DNA of 64,000 bases from an uncultured Gammaproteobacteria bacterium (GCA_964439885.1 CAYTPE010000001.1:9031-73030), one strand, 5' to 3'. Shown: positions 4,784 to 60,384, counted from the first letter of the stretch. Notes: generated from the sequence alone by a model not told the origin. Translations and numbers: made by a program.

Positions 4784-5638
4784 ATGGTACAGTGCTACTT
4801 GTGTCACAATAAAAAATTAGTTTTGAGAAACGATTCCACGCGCGATCGACCGGAAATAAAGGTTCTCCATTGCCCGGCGTGCGATCTCACGTTTCTTGCT
4901 TCGTTCAAACATTTGAACGATTTTTCGTATAACGACAGTAAGCACAACTACGATAAACCAATACCGAGCAAGGAGGCTTATACCATGTTACTCAAGGAGC
5001 TGTCCGGTGACGATCTCAGACGTGTTGAGCAACACAAAAAAATGATCACCGGCAAGCGCTTGTTGGATTTTGGGTGTGGCGCTGGTGGGTTTTTACTACA
5101 AGCTAAAAAGCATGCCAAAGAAGCATACGGCGTCGAGATTGATTCAATTACGCGGTTCTATAATAAAAAAGTCTCGGTAAAAAAATCCATCGAGGAATTC
5201 AACATGCAATTTGACGTTATCACACTCTTCCATGTTATCGAACATATACCGGATCCGATTGCACTACTCACCATGTTAAAAAAATTTCTTCGTCCCGGCG
5301 GTACCATTATTATCGAAGTGCCGAACGATCATGATGCGCTTATCTCGTATTACCAATTGCCTGCCTTTAAGAATTTTACCTATTGGAGCCTACATCTGTT
5401 TTCGTTTTCGCCCCAAAGCATTACCAGGCTTTTCCGCAACGCTGGGTATAAGCGCAGTCAGGTAACCTTTTTTCAGCGCTACTCATTTGCCAATCACATT
5501 GGGTGGCTTAAAGACGGCAAACCAGGTGGGCAGAACCGCTATCCAGAGATGGATACCCAAAAATTGAACGCCGCGTATGTCGCGCATTTGAAAAAAAACG
5601 GTCTGTGCGACACGCTGATTGCTTATTTAAAAAAGTAG
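4784..5638 (+). CDS. class I SAM-dependent methyltransferase with N-terminal C4 zinc ribbon
   Basis: 284 aa. N-terminal CYLCHNKK...CPACDL zinc ribbon, then methyltransferase motif I LLDFGCGAGGFLLQ...YGVEID. This architecture is typical of methyltransferases in sugar-modification clusters. Confidence 0.75.
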   Translation: MVQCYLCHNKKLVLRNDSTRDRPEIKVLHCPACDLTFLASFKHLNDFSYNDSKHNYDKPIPSKEAYTMLLKELSGDDLRRVEQHKKMITGKRLLDFGCGAGGFLLQAKKHAKEAYGVEIDSITRFYNKKVSVKKSIEEFNMQFDVITLFHVIEHIPDPIALLTMLKKFLRPGGTIIIEVPNDHDALISYYQLPAFKNFTYWSLHLFSFSPQSITRLFRNAGYKRSQVTFFQRYSFANHIGWLKDGKPGGQNRYPEMDTQKLNAAYVAHLKKNGLCDTLIAYLKK

Positions 5639-5641
5639 TGT

Positions 5642-7042
5642 ATGAAAGTACTTTATATTGGCGGTGGCTTTGTGGGAGCCTGTAGCGCCGCAGTTTCTGC
5701 CGACAGTGGCCACGAGACGATGGTATACGATATCGACCAACACAAAACAGCCTTGCTTTCGTCGGGCGATCGGACGCGCATTGAATCATGTCTTTTTGAA
5801 AAAGGATTGGGAGATTTACTGGTGCGTAACGCCGACCGAATTACTTTTACCAGTGACTATGCTGATGTGGAAGCTTTTTTAGATACCTGTGAGGTTGTAT
5901 TCATGTGTGTGCCCACTCCCGAAATCGATGAGACGGGCGAAAGTGACCTGTCGTATTATAATGCAGCCACGGAAAAACTTTCTACTTGTTTAGTAAAGCG
6001 CAACAGTGGCTCTCAAAGCAATTACATTGTCGTCGTTAATAAGAGTACCGTTCCTATTGATACGGTGAGCCGAACCGAGCAGATGCTGGCTGAGCGTGGT
6101 GTCAAAAATGTGGGCGTGGTTTCTAACCCGGAATTTTTGGTTGAGGGCAAAGCCGTGCAAGATTCCCTCAAACCGGATCGGATAGTGGTCGGCGCGCGCA
6201 CTGAGCGTGACTTTGAGGTTATGCGCCGTTTGTATCAGCGGTTTTACGATTCTCCCACGGTGCAATATTTACAAGTAAGCCCGGAAGAAGGTGCCGCCAG
6301 TAAATTGTTAGCAAATTATTATCTCTTCAATCGCTTGGCTGTTTGTTTCGATGTGATTGGCAGAACCTGTGAAGCTTTTCCTGGCCTAAAATTCGAAAAT
6401 ATTCGTCGCGTGCTTACCACCGATAAAAGAATCGGCGAGTGGGGTTTTTACGATAGTCTGTATGCCGGTGGAAGCTGTTTTATCAAAGATACTCGCTCGC
6501 TTGCGCACCAACTGCAGTCCGTTGGCTATGATGCGCCGCTCGTACGCGAAACACATGCCGCCAATCGTCGCCAACTGATGTCCTTTTTGAATCGCGCCGA
6601 GCGCGAGGCGCAGTACCAGTGGGTGGGAAAAAAGGTGGCGCTCCTCGGCGTTGCTTTTAAACGAGACACTAACGATGTCCGCAATTCACCAAGCAGTGAT
6701 ATCGTCCGCTTTCTCCATGATAAAAAAGTGGGGAACATTACCGTGTACGATCCGGCAGCGATGGATACTTTTAAAAAAACGATTTCCGCGGATTTAACAC
6801 TTCACTACGCACAAAATGAAAGTGAGGCTATACACGACGCCGATGTCATTATCGTGGCTACCGATTGGCCACAATTTCGTGGTGTCGCCGACCAGCTGGT
6901 AATGCAAATGAATAGCACACATACGAATAAGCCTGAGTTGATTATGGATTGTCGCCGCATGTTCCAACATCGCTATGACGATTTGCAAAAAAGCGGCTGC
7001 GCTATTATCGCGGTTGGTTCGCCGCTTATCTCACCTCAATAA
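5642..7042 (+). CDS. nucleotide-sugar dehydrogenase (UDP-glucose/GDP-mannose dehydrogenase family)
   Basis: 466 aa. N-terminal NAD-binding segment MKVLYIGGGFVGACSAA and the catalytic-cysteine motif GGSCFIKD. Confidence 0.8.
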   Translation: MKVLYIGGGFVGACSAAVSADSGHETMVYDIDQHKTALLSSGDRTRIESCLFEKGLGDLLVRNADRITFTSDYADVEAFLDTCEVVFMCVPTPEIDETGESDLSYYNAATEKLSTCLVKRNSGSQSNYIVVVNKSTVPIDTVSRTEQMLAERGVKNVGVVSNPEFLVEGKAVQDSLKPDRIVVGARTERDFEVMRRLYQRFYDSPTVQYLQVSPEEGAASKLLANYYLFNRLAVCFDVIGRTCEAFPGLKFENIRRVLTTDKRIGEWGFYDSLYAGGSCFIKDTRSLAHQLQSVGYDAPLVRETHAANRRQLMSFLNRAEREAQYQWVGKKVALLGVAFKRDTNDVRNSPSSDIVRFLHDKKVGNITVYDPAAMDTFKKTISADLTLHYAQNESEAIHDADVIIVATDWPQFRGVADQLVMQMNSTHTNKPELIMDCRRMFQHRYDDLQKSGCAIIAVGSPLISPQ

Positions 7043-8378: not shown

Positions 8379-8418
8379 TCTTCTAATCTTTCAGTCTTTT
8401 AGTCTTCAGTCTTTCACT

Positions 8419-9333: not shown

Positions 9334-9379
9334 AAAGTCATTGAAAAATTATTAAGAGATTATTAAAAAGTTATTATAC

Positions 9380-12917: not shown

Positions 12918-13011
12918 GTTGCGCAGAGTATCTGGTATATAGTATTTTGTATTGAGGCACTTACCATATGCCATATACCAAATACCAAATACTTAATACA
13001 AAATTCTTTCT

Positions 13012-13431
13012 ATGTCTCCATTCAAACAATTCACCCTCAAAACATTCACTTCAAAAGGCTATTCACTCACCCCGGTGGAGTTTAAAGATATTGCGCCGTT
13101 CGAAGTGAAGCGCATGTATTACCTTACCAATTTTGAAGCCGCCGCGCACACGGGCGAGCACTGTCACTACGTAGAACAAGAGGTTTTCATTGTTGCCAAG
13201 GGGTCAGTCACCGCCATAATCGATAGAGGGCAGGGTAAAGAGGAAATAACGCTTACCACTCCCGGCGAAGCTTTTTATGCTCCCGCCTACAGCTGGCACG
13301 GGTTTAAGGACGCATCGAACGATTGTGTTCTTATCGCTCTCACATCTACCAACTATAGTGCCGATCGCAGCGATTATTTGGAAGATTATGAAAAATACTT
13401 GACACTCAGAGATGAACACCTGAGTAAATGA
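13012..13431 (+). CDS. cupin-fold dTDP-4-keto-6-deoxyhexose 3,4-ketoisomerase (FdtA/WxcM C-terminal-domain-like)
   Basis: 139 aa, FEVKRMYYLTNFEAAAHTGEHCHYVEQEVFIVAKGSV...LIALTSTNYSADRSDYLEDYEKY; resembles FdtA/QdtA isomerases. Confidence 0.65.
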   Translation: MSPFKQFTLKTFTSKGYSLTPVEFKDIAPFEVKRMYYLTNFEAAAHTGEHCHYVEQEVFIVAKGSVTAIIDRGQGKEEITLTTPGEAFYAPAYSWHGFKDASNDCVLIALTSTNYSADRSDYLEDYEKYLTLRDEHLSK

Positions 13432-13527
13432 CTAATGACAAATGTCTAATTTCAAATAAAATGTCCAAGTTAAAATTTGAGCATTTGTATTAGATATTAG
13501 AAATTCGATATTAGATATTCAAGTTAT

Positions 13528-14379
13528 ATGCGTGTTGTTATCATTGGTTCCAAAGGCATGCTCGGTACCGCTCTCGTGGAGCGGTTTTCTCACAAACATG
13601 AAGTAGTAGGTCTTGACCGACCCGAAATCGACATTACGGACGAAGCGTCGACTCAAACCAAGCTTGAAACGCTTGCTCCCGAGGTACTTATCAACTGCGC
13701 GGCAATCAATGCCGTCGATGATATCGAATCCAAAAACGATGTGTTTGAACTGGCTTGGAAAGTAAACGCCAAGGCGGTGGAAACACTCGCCCTGGTAGCA
13801 AAAACGCTGAACATTCCCCTTGTGCATTTTTCTTCCGATTATGTGTTTGATGGTACAAATGACGAGGGTTACGTGGAAGATTTTTCACCCAAGCCAATCA
13901 GTAAATACGGCGAGACGAAATTTGAAGGCGAGAGACTCTTAGAAAGCGTTACGAGCAAGTATTATCTCATCCGACTGTCCCGGTTGTTTGGAAGACCAGG
14001 AATAGGGGAAGGGATGAAAAAAAGTTTTGTGGATAAAATGCTTGAAATTGCCGAAGCAGGAAAGGAACTCAAAGTGGTCGATGCCGAAGTAGGATCGCCC
14101 ACCTATAGCGTTGATTTGGCGGATTTCGTTTACAAGCTTCTCGAAAAGCAGTTACCGTATGGTGTATACCATGGCGCCAATAGCGGCGCGTGCACATGGT
14201 ACGAGTGGGCAGGCGAAATTTTTCGCTTAAAGAATATGCCGGTCAGCGTTGAGCGAATTGACCCAGCTGGTTTGATCCGCCCCGCCAAACGCCCAGCGTA
14301 CTCGGAACTTATCAATACCAAAACAGAGCCGCCGCGCAGCTGGCAGGAGGCACTTAACGACTATATTAGTAGTTTATAA
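13528..14379 (+). CDS. dTDP-4-dehydrorhamnose reductase-like (RmlD family)
   Basis: 283 aa, MRVVIIGSKGMLGTALVERF...; RmlD substrate-binding-domain pattern. No RmlC was found nearby, so the true substrate is uncertain. Confidence 0.8.
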   Translation: MRVVIIGSKGMLGTALVERFSHKHEVVGLDRPEIDITDEASTQTKLETLAPEVLINCAAINAVDDIESKNDVFELAWKVNAKAVETLALVAKTLNIPLVHFSSDYVFDGTNDEGYVEDFSPKPISKYGETKFEGERLLESVTSKYYLIRLSRLFGRPGIGEGMKKSFVDKMLEIAEAGKELKVVDAEVGSPTYSVDLADFVYKLLEKQLPYGVYHGANSGACTWYEWAGEIFRLKNMPVSVERIDPAGLIRPAKRPAYSELINTKTEPPRSWQEALNDYISSL

Positions 14380-21238: not shown

Positions 21239-22365
21239 TTATGGCGAAGCTCTCTGTCCATCTCGTCTCCTGGAACGGTGCCAAATATATCCCATATCTT
21301 TTTGACTCTTTGCGCAAGCAAACCTACACAGACTGGGAATTATTTGTCGTCGACAACGCGTCGACTGACGAGACAGTTGCTTTGATTCAGAAAGAGCTTG
21401 TCAATTTTCCTTTTGCTTCGCGTGTTACAGTAAACACCACGAATACTGGTTTTGCGGGAGGGCACAACCAAGCGTTCAAAGCTGCGAGCGCTGAGTATTT
21501 TTTGTTACTCAATCAAGACATGTACCTCATGCCCGATTGTTTGGAGAAGATGGTACAGTTTCTCGATGAACATTCTGATGTGGCCGCTGTTTCGCCACGC
21601 CTGATGTGTTGGGCCTTTAGCGAGGATTTAAACGAATTTAAGGTTGATTCAGACAGATTTAGACAGAGTCTTACGCATCAGATTGACGCGCTGGGACTCA
21701 AAATTTTCCGCAATCGGCGAGTGGTGGAGCAGCATACGCGAGAAGAGTGGAGCGCATTTGTCATCCCCGACCATGATCGGGGATCTATCGCAAACGAACC
21801 GCAGAACGTGGATTCCCGTTTGCACGGGAATGACAGTGTCATAGTACTTGAAGTGTTTGGCGTTTCCGGTGCCTTCCCTATGTTGCGCCGTTCCATTATT
21901 AACGAAATTGTCTTTTCCGATGGAACGTTTCTGGATGAATCGTATCATTCGTACAAAGAAGATATGGACCTCGCGTATCGACTGGCTGCTCATGGAACAC
22001 GATCGTACATACTCAGCGATACGGTGGCGTACCACGATCGATCGGGAGCCGGCCCCAAGGAACTTTCCGACTGGGCAGCCGCCAAAAATAAATCCACCCA
22101 ATCGAGTTGGGTGCGCTACCATAGCTACAAAAATCATCTGATGACACTGTACAAAAACGAATACTGGCAGAACGCACTACTTGATGCGCCGTGGATATTG
22201 TGGTATGAAATTAAGAAGTTTGTTTATTTTCTACTGTTTGAACCGCGCGTGCTGAGGGGGTTAGGTGAGGTGTGGAAAATGCGTAAAGATTTGAAGATTA
22301 AAAGATTGAAGATTAAAGAATTAAGAAAGGTTGGTTGGCGGGAAATGAGAAAGTGGTGGCGGTGA
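21235..22365 (+). CDS. family-2 glycosyltransferase (contains an in-frame copy of a 29-nt repeat)
   Basis: LSVHLVSWNGAKYIPYL...FVVDNASTDETV GT2 N-terminus. Nucleotides 21808-21836 are identical to an intergenic MITE-like element at 30594-30622. Confidence 0.75.
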   Translation: MIMAKLSVHLVSWNGAKYIPYLFDSLRKQTYTDWELFVVDNASTDETVALIQKELVNFPFASRVTVNTTNTGFAGGHNQAFKAASAEYFLLLNQDMYLMPDCLEKMVQFLDEHSDVAAVSPRLMCWAFSEDLNEFKVDSDRFRQSLTHQIDALGLKIFRNRRVVEQHTREEWSAFVIPDHDRGSIANEPQNVDSRLHGNDSVIVLEVFGVSGAFPMLRRSIINEIVFSDGTFLDESYHSYKEDMDLAYRLAAHGTRSYILSDTVAYHDRSGAGPKELSDWAAAKNKSTQSSWVRYHSYKNHLMTLYKNEYWQNALLDAPWILWYEIKKFVYFLLFEPRVLRGLGEVWKMRKDLKIKRLKIKELRKVGWREMRKWWR

Positions 22366-22519
22366 GGTGGGGAGTGTAGTATTTTGTATCTCATATCTCA
22401 CAACTGATAACTCATAACACGATTGGAAATCTCAAGTGTGCAAGGTATGTTTTGAAAAGATTCAAAAGCATGAGTTTGAGATTACGGGTTACGAGTTGTG
22501 ATGTGCATGTTTTACTCGT

Positions 22520-30551: not shown

Positions 30552-30621
30552 TTGTCATTCCCGCCGGAGCGGGAATCTCGGGTATATAACGAAGTGGATT
30601 CCCGTTTGCACGGGAATGACA
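30552..30621. mobile_element. MITE-like double-hairpin element with terminal inverted repeat TTGTCATTCCC / GGGAATGACA
   Basis: TTGTCATTCCCgccggagCGGGAATctcgggtatataacgaagtggATTCCCGtttgcaCGGGAATGACAg. It has the same termini as the element at 36631-36736; the internal 29 nt recur at 21808-21836 and a degenerate copy lies at about 60245-60275. Confidence 0.5.
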
Positions 30622-32089: not shown

Positions 32090-32290
32090 TCGGTTTTGGA
32101 GACATAGCCACGCCCCACCCTGGGGCTGGTTTTATTTTGGTTTTGTGTTATACTCTTTGAAAATGTCAAGTATCAAATTTCTAATGCCAAATAAAAAGCA
32201 CATTATCCAATTTTCAATACAATATATTTGATATTTGAGCTTAAAATTTGATTGGAAATTCGTCATTTGTCATTTGACATTTACTGATGT

Positions 32291-33808
32291 ATGGACGGGA
32301 AAGAGGTATTTGAACTTATAGCCACAATCGCCAAACATAATAAAACTCCAACATATATCGTCGGTGGTTTTGTGCGTGACGCGCTGCTCGGTCGCGGGCA
32401 AAAAAAGGACATTGATTTTGTGGTGGTTGGTTCCGGCATTGCATTCGCAAAAAAATTTGATGAGGCAATGAAGCAGTCAGGCTCGCTTATTGAGTTTCCC
32501 GATTTTGATACGGCGCGGTATGTCATAAATCCCCGCTTGGGCGGGGAGCCGTCCGCCTTGGCGGCGGACGGGGGGTGGGTTGGTGAGAGCAACGAAACAC
32601 TTGTTTTGGAATTCGCGGGAGCGCGTACCGAAAAGTATGACGAGAAATCACGCAAACCAAAAGTGGAGGCAGCTAGTTTGGAAAAAGATTTGGAGAGACG
32701 AGATTTTACTGTGAATGCAATGGCAATAGATGTAACGAAATACGAAAGGTACGAAAATACGAAAGAGATAAGTGATATAGCGATTGATCCATTCAACGGT
32801 CGGCAAGACCTTGAAGATAAAATTTTGCGCACGCCGCTCGATCCGGATGTTACATTTAGTGACGATCCGCTACGTATGCTTCGCGCAGTGAGGTTCGCGG
32901 CTCAGCTTAATTTCAGTATCGAACCAAAAACACTCGAAGCCGTTCATCGAAATCGTGAGCGAATGAAAATCATTTCCGGTGAGCGAGTGCAAGAAGAACT
33001 TATTAAACTGATGGCGACTCCCGTGCCATCAATCGGACTGCAACTTATGTGGACCACAGGGCTCATGGATGTGGTACTCCCCGAAGTGTCGGCCCTGGAC
33101 GGTGTGGAAGAAATTTTTGGTCACCAACACAAAAACAATCTCGTACATAGTATCAAAGTAGTCGACAACATCGCCGAGTGGTCCACGAACCCGTGGCTAC
33201 GCCTCGCCGGGCTTCTCCACGACATTGGCAAACCCGGTACCAAGCAATTCCTCCCCAAAATTGGGTGGAGCTTTCACGCGCACGAGCACCTCGGTAAAAA
33301 ATTGTTTTATAACGTCGCGCGCCGCCTCAAACTCTCCAAAGAAAAAACCGATTATATCGCTAAGCTTATCCGCTGGCATCTACAGCCAATCGCGCTCATG
33401 GACGAAGGTATTACCGACTCGGCAGTGCGCCGGCTCATTGTCACAATGGGGGAGGAACTGGAGGATCTGCTCATCCTCGGTAAAGGTGACATTACTACGG
33501 GCAACCCGTATAAAAAAGAAAAAAGATTAAAGAATTACGATCGTTTGCGTTCAACGATTGATGACTTGATTGAGCGAGATAAACTCCGCGCCTTCCAGTC
33601 TCCGGTGCGCGGTGATGAGATAATGCAGCTGTGTGGGCTTAAACCTGGGCCAACGGTGGGTAAAATAAAAGAAGCCATTGAAGAAGCTATTCTCGACGGT
33701 AAAATTCCGAACGAGTATGACGCGGCGAAACAGTATTTCGAAGAGATTAAAGACGAGTATCTGAAAGAAGCAGCGCGATGGGAAAGAGAGGAAAATGGTA
33801 CGGAGTAA
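32291..33808 (+). CDS. cca: CCA-adding tRNA nucleotidyltransferase (head domain + HD domain)
   Basis: PTYIVGGFVRDALLGRGQKKDIDFVV nucleotidyltransferase signature, RDFTVNAMA, and the HD motif LLHDIGKP. Carries an approximately 40-aa insertion in the head domain. Confidence 0.8.
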   Translation: MDGKEVFELIATIAKHNKTPTYIVGGFVRDALLGRGQKKDIDFVVVGSGIAFAKKFDEAMKQSGSLIEFPDFDTARYVINPRLGGEPSALAADGGWVGESNETLVLEFAGARTEKYDEKSRKPKVEAASLEKDLERRDFTVNAMAIDVTKYERYENTKEISDIAIDPFNGRQDLEDKILRTPLDPDVTFSDDPLRMLRAVRFAAQLNFSIEPKTLEAVHRNRERMKIISGERVQEELIKLMATPVPSIGLQLMWTTGLMDVVLPEVSALDGVEEIFGHQHKNNLVHSIKVVDNIAEWSTNPWLRLAGLLHDIGKPGTKQFLPKIGWSFHAHEHLGKKLFYNVARRLKLSKEKTDYIAKLIRWHLQPIALMDEGITDSAVRRLIVTMGEELEDLLILGKGDITTGNPYKKEKRLKNYDRLRSTIDDLIERDKLRAFQSPVRGDEIMQLCGLKPGPTVGKIKEAIEEAILDGKIPNEYDAAKQYFEEIKDEYLKEAARWEREENGTE

Positions 33809-33900
33809 GCAGTGAATCGTTTACTCCTTATTCTTTACTCTTTACTCTTTTGAAAAAGCATGGTATGATAAGTATGAAATTACATATTTAACTTTTTTCT

Positions 33901-34127: not shown

Positions 34128-35747
34128 ATGAGTACAGCTTTTTTTAAAAAGAAATCATTCTACATTCCAGCCATGATTGTGGTGTTGGTGGCAGTATTTA
34201 TTGTCTATCGGAACTACAAAAAAGCCAATCAACCACCCAACTATGAAATGGCCACCGTCACACGCACAGACCTCGTCCAAAAAGTAGAAGCGACCGGCAA
34301 TGTGGAATCAGTGAACGACCTCGATTTACGATTCGAAACTCCCGGAACGCTCACCTATGTGGCTGTAAAAGAAGGTGATCATGTGCGCGCTGGTACGCTT
34401 CTGGCCAATTTGAATTTGGCTGCCCTGAACGCTCAGGTTGCGCAGGCCAATGCCAATTTGCAACAGCATCTTGCCGGCTCAACCGACCAGGATATTGCTT
34501 TTTACGCTTCGGCTGTGGAAGCTGCTCGTGTATCGCTCGAACAAGCCAAAGCAAACGCTGGTGTGGACGCAACAGTAGTCGGCGGGATAAGCATCTCCGG
34601 TAGCGCGTATGCGAATGCAGTTACGACGCTGCAGGCATCACTCGGTAAAATGGATGATGCTATTACACAAGCGGACAACATTTTGGGCATTGATAATACG
34701 ATTGCAAACCAAAATTTCAAAAATTATCTCAGCAGCGGCAACCCAGTTCTAATGAATGACGCCGGTTTCATGTATGCTGATGCGAAGGCAAAACGTGATG
34801 CGGCTCGCAGTGCCATTGCATCGCTTAGTTTGGTAAGCACCCCTTCGGCAGTCGAGTCGGCTTTTGCCCCTGCCACCGCATCGCTCACTTCTATTAGTAC
34901 GCTACTCGGACAAGTGGGCCAAATTCTTAACGCAACCGTGCCACAAGGCAGTTTGACGCAGGATTTGCTTGATGCTAAGAAAACAATTATCACGACGTCT
35001 CGTTCCGGAGTCAATACAACCCTTACGAGCATTGCGAGCGCCGTGCAGGCGATTGCTGACGCGAAAGTGGCCGTGAACGCCAAACAGGCGGCGTATGACC
35101 AAGCAGTGGCGAACTATCAGGCTCGTACGGTACCGCCACGTGAAGTTGATGTGGCGTCATATCGTGCCGCACTTTCGGCAGCCGTAGCAGCGCGTGATAA
35201 AGCAGTAATTCGCGCGCCGATCGATGGCGTCATCGCGAAAGTAAACAAAAAGCGTGGTGAACTCGTAACATCGGCCGATGTGGCTATCCAAATGGTATCA
35301 CCGCATTTCGAAGTGAAAGTTGATATCCCCGAAACCGATGTATCCAAACTCAAATTGAACGACCCGGTGGATATCACGCTTGATGCCTTCGGCCCGGAAA
35401 CCAAATTCAGCGGTGTGATTACAGCGATCGACCCGGCCTCCACTGTTATCCAAGATGTGGTGTACTACAAAGTAACGGTAGCCTTGAACGATACGGATCA
35501 AGCGATCAAACCAGGGATGACGGCAAACGTATCGGTGACCACCGACAAACGCGATGCCACACTCTCGATCCCAGTACGCGCGGTGCGCACCAACGATGAC
35601 GGTAGTAAGAGTGTGCGTATTCTGGAAAACAAGAATCAAGAAAAGAGTGTCCCCGTAACACTCGGCCTGAAAGACAGTGAAGGACGCGTGGAAGTGGTGA
35701 GCGGCCTTACGGAAGGACAACAGATTATTGTGAGCACCAAGCAATAA
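34128..35747 (+). CDS. HlyD-family periplasmic adaptor (membrane-fusion protein) of an ABC export system
   Basis: N-terminal transmembrane anchor, long coiled-coil region (LNAQVAQANANLQQHLAG...), and C-terminal beta-barrel/lipoyl-like segments (IRAPIDGVIAKV...GMTANVSV). Precedes a MacB-type ATPase and permeases. Confidence 0.7.
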   Translation: MSTAFFKKKSFYIPAMIVVLVAVFIVYRNYKKANQPPNYEMATVTRTDLVQKVEATGNVESVNDLDLRFETPGTLTYVAVKEGDHVRAGTLLANLNLAALNAQVAQANANLQQHLAGSTDQDIAFYASAVEAARVSLEQAKANAGVDATVVGGISISGSAYANAVTTLQASLGKMDDAITQADNILGIDNTIANQNFKNYLSSGNPVLMNDAGFMYADAKAKRDAARSAIASLSLVSTPSAVESAFAPATASLTSISTLLGQVGQILNATVPQGSLTQDLLDAKKTIITTSRSGVNTTLTSIASAVQAIADAKVAVNAKQAAYDQAVANYQARTVPPREVDVASYRAALSAAVAARDKAVIRAPIDGVIAKVNKKRGELVTSADVAIQMVSPHFEVKVDIPETDVSKLKLNDPVDITLDAFGPETKFSGVITAIDPASTVIQDVVYYKVTVALNDTDQAIKPGMTANVSVTTDKRDATLSIPVRAVRTNDDGSKSVRILENKNQEKSVPVTLGLKDSEGRVEVVSGLTEGQQIIVSTKQ

Positions 35748-35884
35748 AACTCTAAATACGAAACCCTAAACTCTAAACAAACTCAAATTTTTAATCACCT
35801 ACATTCAAAAGGTGGTTTCGTAATGTGGTATGTGAGTTTTGAAATTGTTTAGGATGTAGAGTTTAGAACTTAAAATTTGAAGGT

Positions 35885-36607: not shown

Positions 36608-36630
36608 TGTGTTTTACCGGAGCATTTATT

Positions 36631-36736
36631 TTGTCATCCTGAGGCCACAGCCGAAGGATCCCTCTCCACCAATCGAAAGGGATTCTTCCCGCCAAAGGCG
36701 GATAGGCGGGGGTGTTAACCCCACTCAGAATGACAA
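36631..36736. mobile_element. MITE-like hairpin element (TTGTCATCCTGAG...CTCAGAATGACAA termini) between the ABC ATPase and permease genes
   Basis: Imperfect 13-bp terminal inverted repeat flanking about 80 nt with internal CCCGCC/GGCGGG hairpins. Its termini resemble the 30552-30621 element. Confidence 0.45.
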
Positions 36737-36770
36737 TTGTCCTTTTTGAGATATTTGGTAATCCATCATC

Positions 36771-38006
36771 ATGTTATTCGAAAATCTCAAATCAGCCTGG
36801 CAAATTATTTCCCGCAACAAAGTGCGGTCGTTTTTGACGATGCTTGGAATTATTATTGGTGTCATGTCAGTCGTCGTCATTATGTCCGTAGGTGCCGGCG
36901 CGCAAAGTCTTATCATCAACCAAATCAATAGCCTTGGATCGAACTTAGTGGGCATCTTACCCGGTAAGTCGGACGACAACGGGCCACCGGCAGCAGTCTA
37001 CGGCATTGTTATTACCACGCTTAAAGATAGCGATGGCACGGCTATATTGAATTCAGGCAACCCTCATGTTGTGGCATACTCGTCATATGTGCGTGGTGCC
37101 GACACGGTAACGACCGATGAATCCAAAACCGATACGACGTTTATGGGTGTGAGTGCATCGTACCCGAATGTGGAAAATATCTCGATGGCCGAAGGGCACT
37201 TCTTTACGCATGATGATGAGGTGGGCGTAGAGCGAACAGCGGTGCTCGGCAGCGCGGTGGCGCATGATTTGTTTGGCGACCAGAGCGCACTCGGACGACG
37301 AATAAAAATTAAAAAAACAAATTTTCAAGTGGTAGGCGTGCTTGCGTCGCGCGGGCAAAGTGGATTCCAAAATCAAGATGATCAAATTCTTGTGCCGGTT
37401 ACGACCGCGCAGAAATTGTTGCTTGGCATCGATCATGTAAATTTTATTCGGGTGAAAATAGATGACGCTGCGTATGTGGATAGCTCGATGGAAGAAATTC
37501 GCTCCATACTGCGTGATCGACACAACATCGTAAACGCGGAAAACGATGACTTTTCGGTTCGCTCCACCAATCAAGGAGTGGATGTGTTGCTGAATATTAC
37601 TAACGCTCTCAAATTTTTTCTCGCTGCCATTGCCGCTATTTCGCTCGTGGTTGGCGGTATCGGCATTATGAATATTATGCTGGCAGCCGTGGAAGAGCGC
37701 ACCAAAGAAATCGGCTTACGAAAAGCCATTGGTGCCAAGCGGCGTAATATTATCAGTCAATTTTTGGTGGAAACGGTACTCATCACGTTTTTGGGGGGTG
37801 CTATTGGCATACTACTCGGTAGTTTGCTCGCGGTCACAGTGGCCAAAGTCGCGCAAGGCATGGGGTATCAGTGGGATTTGGTAATCACTTGGTCGTCGGT
37901 GATACTCGGCTGCGTCGTTTCTATTTCCATTGGCCTCATCTTCGGACTCAACCCAGCACGCCGCGCCGCCGCCCTTGATCCGATGGTGGCGTTACGGTAT
38001 GAATAA
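36771..38006 (+). CDS. ABC transporter permease (MacB/FtsX-like)
   Basis: 411 aa: N-terminal transmembrane helix, large periplasmic domain and a C-terminal FtsX-type 3-helix bundle (LAAVEERTKEIGLRKAIGAKRRNI). Confidence 0.8.
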   Translation: MLFENLKSAWQIISRNKVRSFLTMLGIIIGVMSVVVIMSVGAGAQSLIINQINSLGSNLVGILPGKSDDNGPPAAVYGIVITTLKDSDGTAILNSGNPHVVAYSSYVRGADTVTTDESKTDTTFMGVSASYPNVENISMAEGHFFTHDDEVGVERTAVLGSAVAHDLFGDQSALGRRIKIKKTNFQVVGVLASRGQSGFQNQDDQILVPVTTAQKLLLGIDHVNFIRVKIDDAAYVDSSMEEIRSILRDRHNIVNAENDDFSVRSTNQGVDVLLNITNALKFFLAAIAAISLVVGGIGIMNIMLAAVEERTKEIGLRKAIGAKRRNIISQFLVETVLITFLGGAIGILLGSLLAVTVAKVAQGMGYQWDLVITWSSVILGCVVSISIGLIFGLNPARRAAALDPMVALRYE

Positions 38007-38094
38007 TTATTGAAAAGTTATTAAAAAATTATTAAGAAATTATTGTGTGAAAATATTAAAATAATTTTTCAATAATTTCTTAATAATTTTAAAA
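38004..38094. repeat. AT-rich inverted repeat built from TTATTAAGAAATTATT-type units
   Basis: TTGAAAAGTTATTAAAAAATTATTAAGAAATTATT...AATAATTTCTTAATAATTTTTCAATAATTTT. One arm recurs at 9339-9378 downstream of the epimerase gene. Confidence 0.5.
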
Positions 38095-39411: not shown

Positions 39412-39687
39412 TGTAGTAGCTGGCCTGCCTCGGCTGCTACAGCTTGCTCCATCACCACCGGAGGGTAAGGTGAGAGCACATGCTGTGCAGCCGAGGCGAG
39501 GTCACTTGGCCCTACGCACGTACGTGCGTAGGTAAAGAGAGCCGCGGGCACCCGCTCGTCGCCGCCATGCCTTGTTCGTTCACCGGGGGGCCGGAGTTTT
39601 CCGAACAGAGACACACACGCGGTCACGACTAGCGGGGCCCGAGGCCCGACTGTGCCAACCACGATGAAGCTGTGGCTGGCGTTTGGA
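39412..39687 (-). ncRNA. GC-rich highly structured RNA of unknown class, co-transcribed downstream of tRNA(UCA)
   Basis: About 276 nt at about 65% GC in an AT-rich context, with no plausible ORF. Contains several perfect or near-perfect helices, including the 22-nt palindrome CCTACGCACGTACGTGCGTAGG, GCCTCGGCTGC...GCAGCCGAGGC (11 bp, long-range), GGGCCtcgGGCCC and CCGGccccCCGG. Bounded by the tRNA on one side and a terminator on the other. Confidence 0.25.
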
Positions 39688-39757
39688 TGGGGCCAGGAGG
39701 ATTCGAACCTCCGCATTCCGGTTTGAAGCCGGACGCTCACCTCTGAGCCATAGCCCC
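39688..39757 (-). tRNA. tRNA-like gene with anticodon UCA (UGA-decoding; resembles Trp-type anticodon arm)
   Basis: Hand-folded 70-nt cloverleaf: acceptor GGGGCUA/UGGCCCC, D-arm GCUC-AGAGGU-GAGC (short loop), anticodon stem UCCGG/CCGGA with loop CUUCAAA (U33, U34-C35-A36, A37), 4-nt variable loop, T-arm GGAGG-UUCGAAU-CCUCC, discriminator A. No encoded CCA. Confidence 0.5.
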
Positions 39758-39898
39758 ATACACCAGCACCGCCGAAGCGGTGCCGTCCTCTCTCACGCAC
39801 ATGCATGCGTGAGAAAAAAGCGACCCCCAAACCCGGGATCCGTCCACGGGAGGGAACCCGCGACAAACCACGCGAGATCTGGGGGTCAGTTGGGCACA

Positions 39899-41086: not shown

Positions 41087-41199
41087 AAAAGAATAAAGAG
41101 TAAAGAATAAAGAATAATAAACGAAACCACCACTCTTTACCTGCCTGCGTAGGCAGGCTCTTTACTCTTTACTCTTTACTCTTTACTCTTTACTCTTTC
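41087..41199. repeat. inverted heptamer tandem arrays (TAAAGAR x3 ... CTCTTTA x6) flanking a central GC hairpin, immediately upstream of dnaG
   Basis: aaaGAATAAAGAGTAAAGAATAAAGAAtaa ... GCCTGCgtagGCAGGC ... CTCTTTACTCTTTACTCTTTACTCTTTACTCTTTACTCTTTC. Confidence 0.6.
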
Positions 41200-43041: not shown

Positions 43042-43179
43042 AATGTAAATTATAAACTTTCAATCCTGATCACATAAAAGTTCCAATGTTTTAAATGGCA
43101 TAATACTACTTAAAACATTTGAAATGTGTCATTCGTCATTGTTTAGATTTTAGAGCTTAGGGTTTAGAGTTTCAAAAGT

Positions 43180-44511
43180 ATGGTTGCAAAACCACATCGC
43201 CCGGTAAAACGAGCGAAGACAACTAAGAAGGCTGTTAAATCAGCCCCCAAAAAAGCAGCTCAGAAGGCTGTAAAAAAAATTCTTAAGAAAAACGGCCACA
43301 AGGCCCCACGGGTCAAGGCCAAAAGTACTGTTTTCTCCACCAGAGGTGGATCCTCCTTTGGAGGAAAAAAAGCACCCGCCAAATCGCGCGTGCCACTTAT
43401 TCCCCTCGAGCCGGTACGTGAACCGTCCGAAGCCGAGCTCTGGGAACTCATCCGCAAGGGGCGCAACCGTGGTTTCATCACGGAAATCGAACTCATGCGC
43501 GTTTTGCCGCAACCAGAACAATACCTCGATTTATACGAAGGCTTTTTGGATTTGGCCGAGCGCAATGGCATATCGGTAGTAGAAACCGCGCCCAGTCTGC
43601 TCGGCACCAAAGAACAAAACAAAGAAACCCTCAAACAATTTCAAGGCGAGCAACCGGACATGGACGTGCCGTTTGATCTGGCTCAAATCTCGAGCGACTC
43701 CATACAGATGTATTTGCGCGAGATCGGCAAGATCCCGCTGCTGTCTGGTGAAGAAGAAGTCGCGCTCGCCAAACGAAAAGAACGAAACGATAAAGCCGCC
43801 GAGCGCAAACTCATCGAAGCGAACCTGCGCCTCGTGGTTTCCATTGCCAAAAAATTCGTGGGCAAAAGCTTGTCGCTCCTCGACCTGATCCAGGAAGGTA
43901 ACATCGGCCTGTTTCGCGCGGTAAAAAAATTCGACTACCGTAAAGGGTATAAATTTTCCACCTACGCCACTTGGTGGATACGCCAGGCCATAACGCGCGC
44001 GCTGGCCGACCAGAGCCGCACCATCCGCATTCCAGTGCACATGGTGGAAACTATCAACCGCTTCCAGCAAGTGCAGCGCCGTTTGCAGCAAGACCTCGGC
44101 CGTGACCCCACGCCCGAAGAGCTGGCCGCCGAAATGGGGGAGGAAGTCGATAAGATTCATCACATCATCAAGATCTCGCAAGACACCATGAGCTTGGAAG
44201 TGCCGATTGGTGACGACGATGAAGATACACAACTTAGTGATTTTATCGAAGACGTCAAAAATGTCTCACCCGATCGCGCGGCGGGATTGCAAATTTTGCG
44301 TGATTACGTTCAAAATGCAATTAAAGATCTCTCTCCTCGTGAACAAAAAATTCTTGAGATGCGTTTTGGTTTAAGTGACGGTGTAACACACACACTGGAA
44401 GAAGTAGGGCAAGAATTTGGTGTGACGCGCGAACGTATTCGCCAGATTGAAGCGAAGGCACTCGAAAAAATTCAGCAGACGGATATTGTGAGTAAATTGC
44501 GTGATTATTAA
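43180..44511 (+). CDS. rpoD: RNA polymerase sigma-70 factor RpoD (with Lys-rich N-terminal tail)
   Basis: Region 1.2/2 [66 protein letters not shown], and region 4 [15 protein letters not shown]...[24 protein letters not shown]. Confidence 0.9.
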
Positions 44512-44513
44512 TT

Positions 44514-45026
44514 ACGTACAGACGTACAGAAAGTACAGAAATACGGAAGGTACAAGAATTAAATATAAAATATATGTCAAGGGAGGGGGTTGCTATCATC
44601 AAAAAAGATTTCTTATATCCGGATTTGACCTACAAAATTAACGGTGTTTTATTCGATGTATTTAAAGAGTTGGGCGGAGGTCACCTGGAAAAATATTATT
44701 AGAAAGCTGCGGCAATCGGGCTGAGCAAAATTCCTCTCAAGTTTGTAGAACAATACATGGTTCCATTAACCTACGCCGGACAAAAGGTTGGTAAATAGTA
44801 TGTAGACTTTTTGATCGAAGAAAAAATAGTATTGGAATTAAAACGAGGTCTATTCATTCCGGCAAATGTAATCCGTCAGACAAAACAGTATTTGATTGCA
44901 ACAAAATTGCAACTGGCACTGGTGGCGTGCTTTACACACAACGGTGTGATTATAAAACGAGTGCTTAATATTTATTAACGAGGTCAGTACGTTCTGTACT
45001 TCTGTACTTTCTGTACGTCTGTACGT
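44514..45026. mobile_element. MITE-like non-autonomous element with about 40-bp terminal inverted repeats composed of GTACAGAA-type octamers, carrying a decayed GxxExxY gene
   Basis: Left end ACGTACAGACGTACAGAAAGTACAGAAaTACgGAAgGTAC (44514-44553). The right end's reverse complement is ACGTACAGACGTACAGAAAGTACAGAAgTACaGAAcGTAC (44987-45026), with a 26-nt exact core. It is inserted exactly between the rpoD stop (44511) and the murG start (45032). Confidence 0.55.
44574..44978 (+). pseudogene. GxxExxY-family (PD-(D/E)XK nuclease-like) gene interrupted by two in-frame TAG codons
   Basis: Translation MSREGVAIIKKDFLYPDLTYKINGVLFDVFKELGGGHLEKYY*KAAAIGLSKIPLKFVEQYMVPLTYAGQKVGK*YVDFLIEEKIVLELKRGLFIPANVIRQTKQYLIATKLQLALVACFTHNGVIIKRVLNIY matches the GxxExxY family. 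TAG at 44700-44702 and 44796-44798. TAG is a bona fide stop elsewhere in the window. Confidence 0.6.
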
Positions 45027-45031
45027 TCTCT

Positions 45032-46111
45032 ATGAAAATTATCCTCTCTGGTGGCGGCACACTTGGTCCGGTCATTCCGCTACTTGCGATCGCCGAAACC
45101 TACCGACAGAAATTTCCGGAAGTAAAATTCATCTGGGTTGGCACCGCCAATGGCCCGGAAAGGGGAGTGGTGGAAAGTTATAATATACCTTTTTTTTCGC
45201 TTGGTTCAGGCAAATGGCGGCGGTATGTATCGCTGTGGAACGTGGTGGATCTCTTCCGAATAGTCGTGGCTTTTTTTCAGTCGCTGTATTTTTTGCTGCG
45301 TGAAAAACCGGACTTACTTATCTCGGCCGGTGGCTACGTGAGCGTGCCGCTGCACTGGGCAGCCGGACTGCTCGCTATGCCCACGTGGGTGCATCAGCAA
45401 GATGTGCGTGTCGGGCTCGCGAACAAACTGATGTTACCGTTCGCGCGCAAAGTCACAACGGCCGTGCGCGAGACAGCGGATGCGTTGAAAAAAAATCACG
45501 CCGAGTGGATCGGTAATCCGTCACGTGATCTGCGCGTCGCCGACAAAGTGGCGGCGCGAAAAAAATTTGCTATTCCGTTTGACGCGCCGGTGATCTTCGC
45601 GCTCGGTGGTGGTACGGGGTCGGCAAGTGTGAACAAGTTGGTGCTTGACGCGTTGCCGCACTGGCCAAGTAAATGGCACGTGATCCACCTCGTGGGAAAA
45701 GAGCGCCCCAAGGAACTTTCGGAACGTGCCGCTGTCGTCTATCCGAACTATCATGTGTATGATTTTTTTACCGATGAGATGAAGGACGCGTATGCCATTG
45801 CCGATGTGGTAATAGGCAGGGCCGGTTTCTCAACCTTGACTGAGATCGCCGCTCTTTCGAAGGCGGCAGTAATACTGCCTATGTTTGGCACTCATCAAGA
45901 ACAAAATGCCGATCTTTTCGCCACCCATGGCGGGATCATAACTTTGGAGCGGGGGACAGAGACCGGACTTAAGCTAGCTCAGGTAGTAAAAGACCTGGTA
46001 GAAGTGCCCGAAAAGCGCCGTGAATTGGGGGTGGCTATGCACGAACTTTTGCCGCGGACACCTGGGGATAAGATTCTTGCGCTCATCGAAGAGGTGTGCA
46101 TACAAAAGTGA
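45032..46111 (+). CDS. murG: undecaprenyldiphospho-muramoylpentapeptide beta-N-acetylglucosaminyltransferase MurG
   Basis: 359 aa, MKIILSGGGTLGPVIPLLAIAE... N-terminal G-loop, and a C-terminal GGSLGA-like/UDP-binding region. Confidence 0.85.
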   Translation: MKIILSGGGTLGPVIPLLAIAETYRQKFPEVKFIWVGTANGPERGVVESYNIPFFSLGSGKWRRYVSLWNVVDLFRIVVAFFQSLYFLLREKPDLLISAGGYVSVPLHWAAGLLAMPTWVHQQDVRVGLANKLMLPFARKVTTAVRETADALKKNHAEWIGNPSRDLRVADKVAARKKFAIPFDAPVIFALGGGTGSASVNKLVLDALPHWPSKWHVIHLVGKERPKELSERAAVVYPNYHVYDFFTDEMKDAYAIADVVIGRAGFSTLTEIAALSKAAVILPMFGTHQEQNADLFATHGGIITLERGTETGLKLAQVVKDLVEVPEKRRELGVAMHELLPRTPGDKILALIEEVCIQK

Positions 46112-60213: not shown

Positions 60214-60384
60214 AGTATATGATTGCAGTAAGTTACTAGTCGTTTTTTGTCATTTCCGCTTTCGCCGGAACGAGATTGCTGAGATTGTTATATCTAGATT
60301 GTATCAAAAGACCGGCACAATGGCAAAAGTTAAACGAGAGCATCGCAGTAAACAAAAACACCACCTGTCGGCGGGTTTTTGTTG

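Follow-up and report, generated by a model that had tools for sequence, protein, structure and literature searches.

A probable disabled copy of a small palindromic cassette, with a GxxExxY nuclease-family gene between arrays of short repeats, at the rpoD–murG junction of an uncultured gammaproteobacterium

The window analyzed here is a 64,000-nucleotide stretch of DNA from an uncultured Gammaproteobacteria bacterium (GCA_964439885.1 CAYTPE010000001.1:9031-73030), in which a 513-bp element at 44514-45026 lies between rpoD and murG. We think it probable that this element is a pseudogenized, full-length copy of a small palindromic cassette, in which a gene of the GxxExxY family, of the PD-(D/E)XK nuclease type, sits between inverted arrays of short units that its own product would recognize, the whole being co-transcribed with the host genes and processed through an RNA stem in the manner of the intervening sequences (IVSs) of 23S rRNA. 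At the level of sequence, comparison with related genomes establishes that the GxxExxY gene and its arrays form one conserved unit. The parts of the element are the following.

44514..44553, + strand: left arm, about four GTACAGAA-like units, ACG TACAGACG TACAGAAAG TACAGAAA TACGGAAGG TAC
44574..44978, + strand: GxxExxY reading frame, a pseudogene of 134 codons plus TAA (TIGR04256 / PF13366, PD-(D/E)XK)
44700..44702, + strand: first in-frame TAG, codon 43, replacing Gln (at least 90% of homologues)
44796..44798, + strand: second in-frame TAG, codon 75, replacing a consensus Tyr
44987..45026, + strand: right arm, the left array in inverted copy

The arms, each 40 nt long and together 93% complementary, are separated by 433 nt. 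Both are built of tandem 8–9-nt GTACAGAA-like units, and the exactly matching part is 27 nt long (ACGTACAGACGTACAGAAAGTACAGAA), one more than the 26 nt claimed in a sequence-only reading of the window, whose description of a 513-bp segment bounded by an inverted repeat of octamer-like units otherwise stands. The arm alignment scores 65, against a maximum of 20 in shuffled sequence, and a chance origin of the inverted repeat is excluded. The double-unit pattern is confined to the two arms (3 matches versus 0.14 expected, with none of 100 shuffles reaching 3), and within the 64-kb window no further GTACAGAA copy occurs outside the element. Its fit into the junction is as exact as that reading had stated: the left arm begins 3 nt past the rpoD stop (TAA, 44509-44511), and the right arm stops 6 nt short of the murG ATG (45032).

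The nearest intact homologues of the reading frame (74 and 68% identity; loci L001 and L002) both have a LemA gene on one side and an M48 peptidase gene on the other, L001 being framed by inverted GTACGGAA/GTACAGAA arrays and L002 by TACGAAA arrays. A one-genome-per-species scan gave 229 relatives, and 80 loci were examined; counting second and third copies within these loci, and loci collected before that scan, the total scored was 84 gene copies. A flank-to-flank inverted repeat scoring at least 33 is present in 72 of the 84, where shuffle maxima are mostly 20–30. Because so many related genes have an array repeat of their own, the gene does not appear to be a chance passenger. The cassette type that emerges has a left array of about four units, a GxxExxY gene of about 130 codons, and an inverted right array. 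Each arm is laid out as a short tag at the terminus, a pair of units side by side, a 2–4-nt spacer, a unit, a 1-nt spacer, and a last unit, where a unit has the form T-A-C-N(1-2)-A-A-W (TACNAAW type) and the start-to-start spacing of about 7, 9–11, and 8 nt is conserved. Units vary between cassettes (TACGAAA, TACAGAA, TACAAAT, TACTAAT, TGCGAAA, TTCGAAT, and TACGGAT), and all eight units within one cassette share the variable positions. Locus L044 carries three cassettes at three consecutive junctions, with proteins 58, 41, and 37% identical and with units of three different types (TACGAAA, TACGGAT, and TGCGGA). Because each of the three has its own unit type, we argue that the reader of the units, whatever it may be, is a product of the cassette and not of the host; the units look like recognition motifs with element-encoded specificity.

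The reading frame is a GxxExxY homologue, as had been proposed. With its TAGs masked as X, it matches TIGR04256, its sole NCBIfam match, at 77.5 bits (cutoff 35, E 1e-21) and PF13366 (PDDEXK_3) at 78.4 bits (cutoff 22). The family motif reads G-HL-E-KY-Y (codons 36-42), and in an alignment with 19 homologues, which are 42–74% identical and two of which are source-labelled Patescibacteria, all 19 invariant residues are retained, including E39, D78, and the E88-x-K90 nuclease motif. Apart from the TAGs the frame is clean, without a frameshift or a third internal stop, and near-invariant residues are kept downstream of the stops as well. The TAGs had been said to replace conserved polar residues. 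More precisely, codon 43 falls on the Gln noted above, for which both L001 and L002 have CAA, and codon 75 on a residue that is usually Tyr (TAT in L001, TAC in L002) and in a few homologues Cys, Phe, or Gly. Unlike the uninterrupted frame of a functional family member, then, the frame of the window is broken twice, and it is the only one with internal stops among the 100 gene copies collected (0 of the 99 others), in agreement with the claim that the gene is decaying.

Programmed or tolerated readthrough of UAG, by which the frame would still yield a full-length nuclease, had been offered as the alternative to decay. The frame is pristine but for two stops that are both TAG, and by a hand estimate, not computed, so clean a state would be met in about 3–20% of neutral-decay histories. 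Moreover, near-cognate tRNAs insert Gln and Tyr at UAG. Reassignment of TAG in the genetic code was considered and rejected, since the two TAGs stand for Gln and Tyr and no single reassignment fits two different amino acids. No tRNA with a CUA anticodon is found among the five tRNAs of the window, and TAG is a normal stop there, as had been noted, closing several long gene-like frames. In addition, both changes (CAG or CAA to TAG, and TAY to TAG) are nonsense mutations of an ordinary kind, and no other family copy collected has an internal TAG. On the strength of the differing residues, the tRNAs, the TAG-ended frames, and the uninterrupted copies elsewhere, decay is more likely than readthrough, which we consider very improbable, and recent pseudogenization seems the plain reading of this frame.

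The host genes that flank the element are both co-oriented with the cassette.

43180..44511, + strand: rpoD (sigma-70 family), upstream host gene
45032..46111, + strand: murG, downstream host gene (PF03033 and PF04101)

In the related locus L087 the rpoD orthologue has the Sigma70 domains r1_2, r2, r3, and r4 and the gene order is dnaG-rpoD-murG. Homologues of the MurG of the window are 65–72% identical to it and 355–361 aa long, and the N terminus MKII.SGGGT is conserved in the relatives compared. The rpoD–murG spacer measures 11 nt in three relatives in which the dnaG-rpoD-murG synteny is kept (L087-L089) and 27 nt (L086) and 90 nt (L085) in two closer ones, and the element has a G+C content of 0.34–0.38, versus about 0.5 in the flanking genes. 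Because the spacers of relatives span only 11–90 nt and the G+C content of the element is low, the element is, by this comparison, an insertion that the relatives lack, as the sequence-only reading had it. Among the loci collected, no other GxxExxY locus adjoins rpoD or murG. The L086 spacer (548-574) contains CTTTCGTAAAATTTCGG and the L085 spacer (487-576) ends with AATTCGTATATA, both resembling right-arm units; the junction may have held array elements earlier in related lineages.

Elsewhere, cassettes are placed with similar precision. Fifty-eight of the 68 cassettes with both neighbors called lie between two genes co-oriented with the GxxExxY gene, the left arm usually starting between about −7 and +8 nt relative to the upstream stop and the right arm usually ending between about −5 and +13 nt relative to the downstream start, a range based on mechanical open reading frame (ORF) calls that may place downstream starts too far upstream. 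It is in Patescibacteria, and in some Bacteroidota, that such cassettes are met between co-oriented genes, along with ORF-less hairpins that have the same arrays and are far more numerous. Within a cassette, the start codon follows the arm by 0–30 nt. The compactness is extreme in L044, where the start codon comes directly after the last unit and the right arm directly after the stop, and some right ends provide AGGG just 5′ of the next ATG. On the + strand of the window element there are no promoter-like or terminator-like sites. Because the cassette is so compact and lacks a + strand promoter-like site, its expression would have to depend on read-through from the host operon.

Entire cassettes are homologous from arm to arm at unrelated junctions. 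The window element and the L001 cassette are 70% identical over 513/511 nt, with unrelated flanks, and the same holds for L014 and L030 (74%) and for L029 and L036, two loci of one genome (75%). Because homology extends from arm to arm between unrelated flanks, the arms and the gene appear to relocate as one unit. Viral contigs contain no canonical array of four TACGAAA units and only two distant GxxExxY relatives; phage genomes contain no relatives.

An array-first survey of metagenome contigs, made with the pattern TACGAAATACGAAA-N2-3-TACGAAA-N1-2-TACGAAA, gave at least 120 stretches, with 134 arrays among the matches listed, to which all counts of arrays in this paragraph up to the orientation of pairs refer. 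Seventy-four have an inverted array within 150 nt, mostly at 1–30 nt, and thus form ORF-less hairpins, whereas 11 have their inverted partner at 150–900 nt; hairpins are therefore about 7 times commoner than long-range pairs. Nine of these 11 pairs enclose a GxxExxY gene, eight in the same sense. Of the remainder, 36 arrays are solitary and 13 are too near a contig end to classify. Pairs are head to head in 97 cases versus tail to tail in 3. The array detector returned 295 arrays versus 12 in shuffled sequence. The ORF-less hairpins measure 65–160 nt, and 22 of 30 lie between co-directional genes, close to the stop and the start (within a few nucleotides). In many full cassettes one arm is duplicated in tandem, or a further complete ORF-less hairpin with the same unit type stands directly next to the gene, on the left or right flank (L008, L010, L027, L031, L057, and L072; also L011, L014, L015, L020, L021, L037, and L078), and for this reason cassette ends seem prone to local duplication.

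Whether the arms are constrained as DNA or as RNA is a question on which their covariation bears. Across cassettes the arms covary strongly: 95.3% of cells are paired, versus 79.7% in shuffles and 32–52% in slid controls, and 19 of 27 pairs have changed on both sides. Mismatches affect 4% of positions in unit cores and 17% in spacers, a difference that points away from a simple RNA-stem constraint. This pattern would fit units read as sequence motifs together with concerted change of both arms, and would be less expected of a stem that RNA pairing alone maintains. The predicted RNA fold of the element has a 40-bp terminal stem in both the minimum-free-energy and the centroid structures (z = −5.6).

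A long stem, a small ORF, and tandem repeats recall the IVSs. In Coxiella burnetii the 23S rRNA IVS is 428 nt long, with terminal inverted repeats that form a 28-bp stem and 3–4 tandem GACAGAT heptamers before a small S23p ORF, and it is excised by RNase III (PMC4990558). The origin and spread of this Coxiella IVS have been unexplained since about 1990 (PMC4990558), and RNase III-cleaved IVSs are also expected in rRNA genes of the candidate phyla radiation (PMC11270868). Like ORF-containing IVSs of Coxiella and Leptospira (PMC4990558), the window element is small (the sizes compared are about 430–510 nt) and has terminal inverted repeats that are predicted to form a long stem and, between the stem base and a small ORF, 3–4 units in tandem, heptamers or octamers (GACAGAT in Coxiella, GTACAGAA in the window); as in IVSs, too, an own promoter is lacking, occurrence is sporadic, and decay of the ORF can happen. 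Unlike them, it is located between genes for proteins, outside helices 9, 25, and 45 of 23S rRNA, and its ORF is a PD-(D/E)XK GxxExxY gene and not S23p. Excision by RNase III is demonstrated for IVSs, whereas for the window element it is suggested by the predicted stem. Neither the window nor any of 18 related loci gave an rRNA match, and no Rfam family matches the element or its arms.

A screen for small ORFs framed by inverted repeats gave genes of TIGR02436, the four-helix-bundle family of the 23S IVS proteins, as well as one RAYT (a transposase discussed below) and one GIY-YIG-like gene. The TIGR02436 genes that lie in inverted arrays are these.

L020, 1364-1750: TIGR02436 four-helix-bundle gene in inverted arrays
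L032, 551-910, − strand: TIGR02436 four-helix-bundle gene in inverted arrays
L054, 1556-1921: TIGR02436 four-helix-bundle gene in inverted arrays
L064, 700-1083: TIGR02436 four-helix-bundle gene in inverted arrays

Their 7–9-nt units (ATTTAAA, TTGTTNTAA, ATTTGAA, and GTAAAG) follow the style of the GxxExxY cassettes with a different cargo. TIGR02436 proteins are also distantly similar to Avd of diversity-generating retroelements.

The mechanism that we propose is as follows. The GxxExxY protein would recognize the repeated units of the ends of its own element and would serve as the element-encoded factor for spread or maintenance at the DNA level, the ORF-less hairpins being its non-autonomous derivatives. 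The cassette would have no promoter of its own and would be transcribed through from the host operon; in the transcript the arms would pair into a stem of about 40 bp, which RNase III probably cuts, as in the Coxiella IVS, and such cutting would make an insertion tolerable between two essential genes. In the window, recent nonsense changes (CAG or CAA to TAG, and TAY to TAG) would have disabled the nuclease gene, so that what is left is inert.

Several observations weigh against this explanation. No near-identical copies were found at different sites, and because the best such pair is only about 75% identical, recent movement is undocumented. Thirteen genomes have an element at the LemA|M48 junction, which could mean long vertical residence rather than mobility. 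Neither at the arms of the window element nor at about 70 other cassettes and hairpins is there a target-site duplication, empty sites being too diverged for exact comparison. The exact 27-nt arm has no match in the metagenome contig collection, and the ORF-less hairpins of the window use unit types other than GTACAGAA. Among arm mismatches, those compatible with G·U (42) are not commoner than A·C (51), and G·U intermediates are nearly absent among covarying pairs; since this wobble test has no bias in either direction, an RNA stem is neither proved nor excluded by it. Binding and cutting of the arrays by the GxxExxY protein we infer, and a single-domain nuclease of 130 aa would be very small for a transposase. 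The collection of 100 gene copies, 97 of them intact, is biased toward intact genes because conserved peptide or array motifs served to find the loci. Finally, two distant plasmid GxxExxY genes (29–35% identity; Persicobacter and Fusobacteria) have no TACNAAW arrays, and the gene–array association is therefore shown only for the subfamily at least 42% identical to the window protein.

Other explanations account for parts of these data. One would reverse the order of events: hairpins came first, and the GxxExxY gene, acting as a homing gene, cuts hairpins with a matching array and is copied into their loop by repair, with the arms as homology. It is true that the gene is always exactly in the loop position between arrays, that ORF-less hairpins are the commoner form among the matches listed, that the two arms of a cassette match closely, in 83% of spacer positions too, as homology arms would, and that the intact homologue P0001 is predicted to have a nuclease fold. 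Arms of 35–45 nt are, however, short for recombinational repair, and none of the genomes seen has a full cassette together with distant ORF-less hairpins that share its arms, such sharing being limited to adjacent duplicates. The other unit types of the window hairpins do not fit either, and the spread of the hairpins themselves would go unexplained. We therefore regard homing of this kind as unlikely. Improbable as well, in our judgment, is that the elements are maintained by host selection as intercistronic hairpins that set RNA processing, stability, or translational coupling, with GxxExxY as an accessory RNA factor. Very precise placement between the stop and start of co-oriented genes would be expected of such elements, as would a stable predicted stem, right ends that supply an AGGG, and a gene intact in nearly all copies; occupancy of LemA|M48 in 13 diverged genomes and the role of IVS stems as RNase III substrates point the same way. 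Yet close relatives have no element at all at rpoD|murG, units differ between junctions and even between neighboring cassettes of one genome, the arms have no G·U bias, the G+C content of the element is below that of the host, and the copy in the window is dead without visible compensation.

Least credible of all is the sequence-only reading's own explanation, in which a non-autonomous MITE (a miniature transposable element with inverted repeats) by chance took up, or rides with, an unrelated, decaying GxxExxY gene. Terminal inverted repeats, small size, and a disabled frame are all present, and ORF-less array hairpins do exist. But gene–array pairing is the rule in related genomes and not an accident, and the arms and the gene diverge and move together, as the cassettes homologous from arm to arm, the three L044 cassettes with their own unit types, and the long-range pairs that mostly enclose a GxxExxY gene all indicate; in addition, the other 99 gene copies have no internal stop. 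We thus retain the explanation of a disabled, full-length palindromic cassette whose gene belongs with its arrays.

How far this explanation generalizes is a more tentative matter. It is possible, although we would not count on it, that GxxExxY proteins of the subfamily at or above 42% identity are the sequence-specific nucleases of an undescribed class of palindromic cassettes that end in inverted arrays of four TACNAAW units and, like their far more numerous hairpin derivatives, colonize stop–start junctions of operons in Patescibacteria and some Bacteroidota, and that the class shares its architecture, and probably its origin, with the 23S IVSs. If true, this would account for the nature of IVSs and for their spread.

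Comparison with other known elements places the cassette apart from each of them. MITEs such as Correia/nemis of Neisseria are short intergenic palindromes that are co-transcribed into mRNA hairpins. The ORF-less array hairpins resemble them, as generally described, in size and form, but end in arrays of four short direct repeats with no target-site duplication seen, and their full-length partner encodes a 130-aa PD-(D/E)XK protein and not a DDE transposase. The window element itself has the terminal inverted repeats and small size of a MITE (40-nt arms, 513 bp); it differs in having coding capacity, through a family gene that is present though disabled, and in lacking a target-site duplication. 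Within the 64-kb window, the part of the genome covered, its GTACAGAA arm is unique and array hairpins of other unit types are numerous. The ORF-less array hairpins are the true MITE-like forms, and the window element is a dead full-length copy.

REPIN/RAYT systems, of repetitive extragenic palindromes (REPs) and their tyrosine transposases, likewise have a small nuclease-type gene within inverted short repeats, ORF-less inverted doublets elsewhere, and a repeat type specific to each subfamily. The cassettes share with this general description a gene flanked by inverted repeats, many ORF-less counterparts, and a repeat type of their own. In contrast to RAYTs, the protein is PD-(D/E)XK and not a Y1 (HUH) transposase, the ends are four-unit arrays and not single REP hairpins, a genome can have several cassettes, and the 64-kb window contains no ORF-less hairpin with GTACAGAA units. 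In L052, by comparison, a genuine RAYT with flanking REPs matches NF047646. The PD-(D/E)XK class also includes free-standing homing endonuclease genes, which are similar in being small nuclease genes with a selfish distribution that leave host genes undisrupted, but the cassettes have no conserved host target sequence, occupy unrelated junctions (rpoD|murG, LemA|M48, and many others), and have structured repeat-array ends. An integron cassette, suggested by compact, promoterless, co-oriented genes, was set aside on layout, in view of inverted arrays on both sides and scattering between housekeeping genes; no attC-like single site was seen at the cassettes, in inspection that included no search aimed at an integrase gene or an attC motif.

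The GxxExxY family is large, with 11,762 cluster representatives at E ≤ 0.001, and the function of PF13366 was given as “Unknown” in a 2012 survey of PD-(D/E)XK proteins (PMC3424549). An AlphaFold model of P0001 (mean predicted local distance difference test score, pLDDT, 92) has the predicted alpha-beta-beta-beta-alpha-beta core of the PD-(D/E)XK fold, and its nearest structures are Cas4 nucleases and nuclease domains of restriction enzymes; a PDB sequence search gave no significant match. Some members of about 265 aa (P0157, P0186, P0197, P0204, and others) hold two tandem GxxExxY domains. The two distant plasmid genes are flanked by repeats of other kinds: direct repeats of about 50 nt ending in TAATCCGTGTACCTA in L091 (Fusobacteria plasmid CP102406.1; 1270-1500 and 1900-1950), and AATCC-rich direct arrays in L090 (Persicobacter CP012852.1; 1440-1480 and 1990-2070). 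In the literature searched, of which coverage was incomplete, we found no published association of GxxExxY/PF13366/TIGR04256 genes with such arrays. The cassette class thus appears to be undescribed; through it, IVS-like palindromic elements are linked with a large protein family whose function is unknown.

The copy in the window is itself inert, a minor pseudogene of little consequence for the organism. Of wider interest, a PF13366 subfamily tied to a defined repeat architecture yields a testable hypothesis, that of a small nuclease recognizing four-unit arrays. Intercistronic hairpins, set within a few nucleotides of stop and start codons, are numerous in the very compact operons of Patescibacteria, and they bear on gene calling and operon RNA processing in uncultured bacteria and on the survival of selfish DNA in streamlined genomes.

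Hairpins or single arrays occur at about ten further junctions of the window, with units CTCTAAA, TTATTAA, AAAGAAT/CTCTTTA, TNTCAAA, TACCAAA, ATCTAAT, and GTTTAGA. Six are ORF-less hairpins with arms of about four 7–8-nt units, all between + strand genes; most run from a stop codon, or from just past it, to a few nucleotides short of the next start, in the style of the GxxExxY arms.

12927-13007, between + strand genes: ORF-less hairpin
13427-13519, between + strand genes: ORF-less hairpin
32161-32282, between + strand genes: ORF-less hairpin
35747-35878, between + strand genes: ORF-less hairpin
38005-38090, between + strand genes: ORF-less hairpin
41088-41198, between + strand genes: ORF-less hairpin
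8379-8416: single or degenerate array at a gene junction
9340-9376: single or degenerate array at a gene junction
22284-22324: single or degenerate array at a gene junction
22390-22418: single or degenerate array at a gene junction
33820-33850: single or degenerate array at a gene junction
43141-43172: single or degenerate array at a gene junction, dnaG|rpoD, just upstream of the window element

Because TTATTAA is present in both 9340-9376 and 38005-38090 and CTCTTTA in both 33820-33850 and 41158-41198, unit types evidently recur in the genome. No four-helix-bundle gene that might partner these other hairpin types is found in the window. Two different array hairpins bracket a 139-aa ORF (13012-13431; region 12918-13528) that lies downstream of a dTDP-glucose dehydratase-like gene and has a marginal NCBIfam match only; the ORF may belong to a cassette with a different cargo, or simply have a miniature element on each side. 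At 32736-32770 a four-unit array of canonical form, AACGAAA TACGAAAGG TACGAAAA TACGAAAG, is in frame inside an ORF of the CCA-adding/poly(A) polymerase family (32291-33808), where it encodes VTKYERYENTKE in a loop after the RDFTVNAMA motif. This loop is 8 residues longer than that of the Aquifex enzyme 4wby and has an imperfect direct repeat of 9 nt (GCAATAGAT / GCGATTGAT) on its flanks, and the array looks tolerated inside it.

Among the tRNAs of the window, one at 39684-39758 (− strand, 75 nt; 69.5 bits with the Rfam tRNA model) has the anticodon UCA. It has a normal cloverleaf fold without the long extra arm of tRNA-Sec, and its anticodon would read UGA, yet frames such as murG end at TGA.

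A second palindrome family, unrelated to the arrays and of a TGTCATT.C...GAATGACA-like form, occurs in the window at 30553-30621, at about 36630-36740, and at about 60240-60270. A palindrome of this type also fills the rpoD|murG spacer of L085 (495-550), and another, in L016 (about 5555-5845), frames a 96-aa gene that is GIY-YIG-like by eye, with no NCBIfam match. These palindromes look like another type of small selfish cassette in these genomes.

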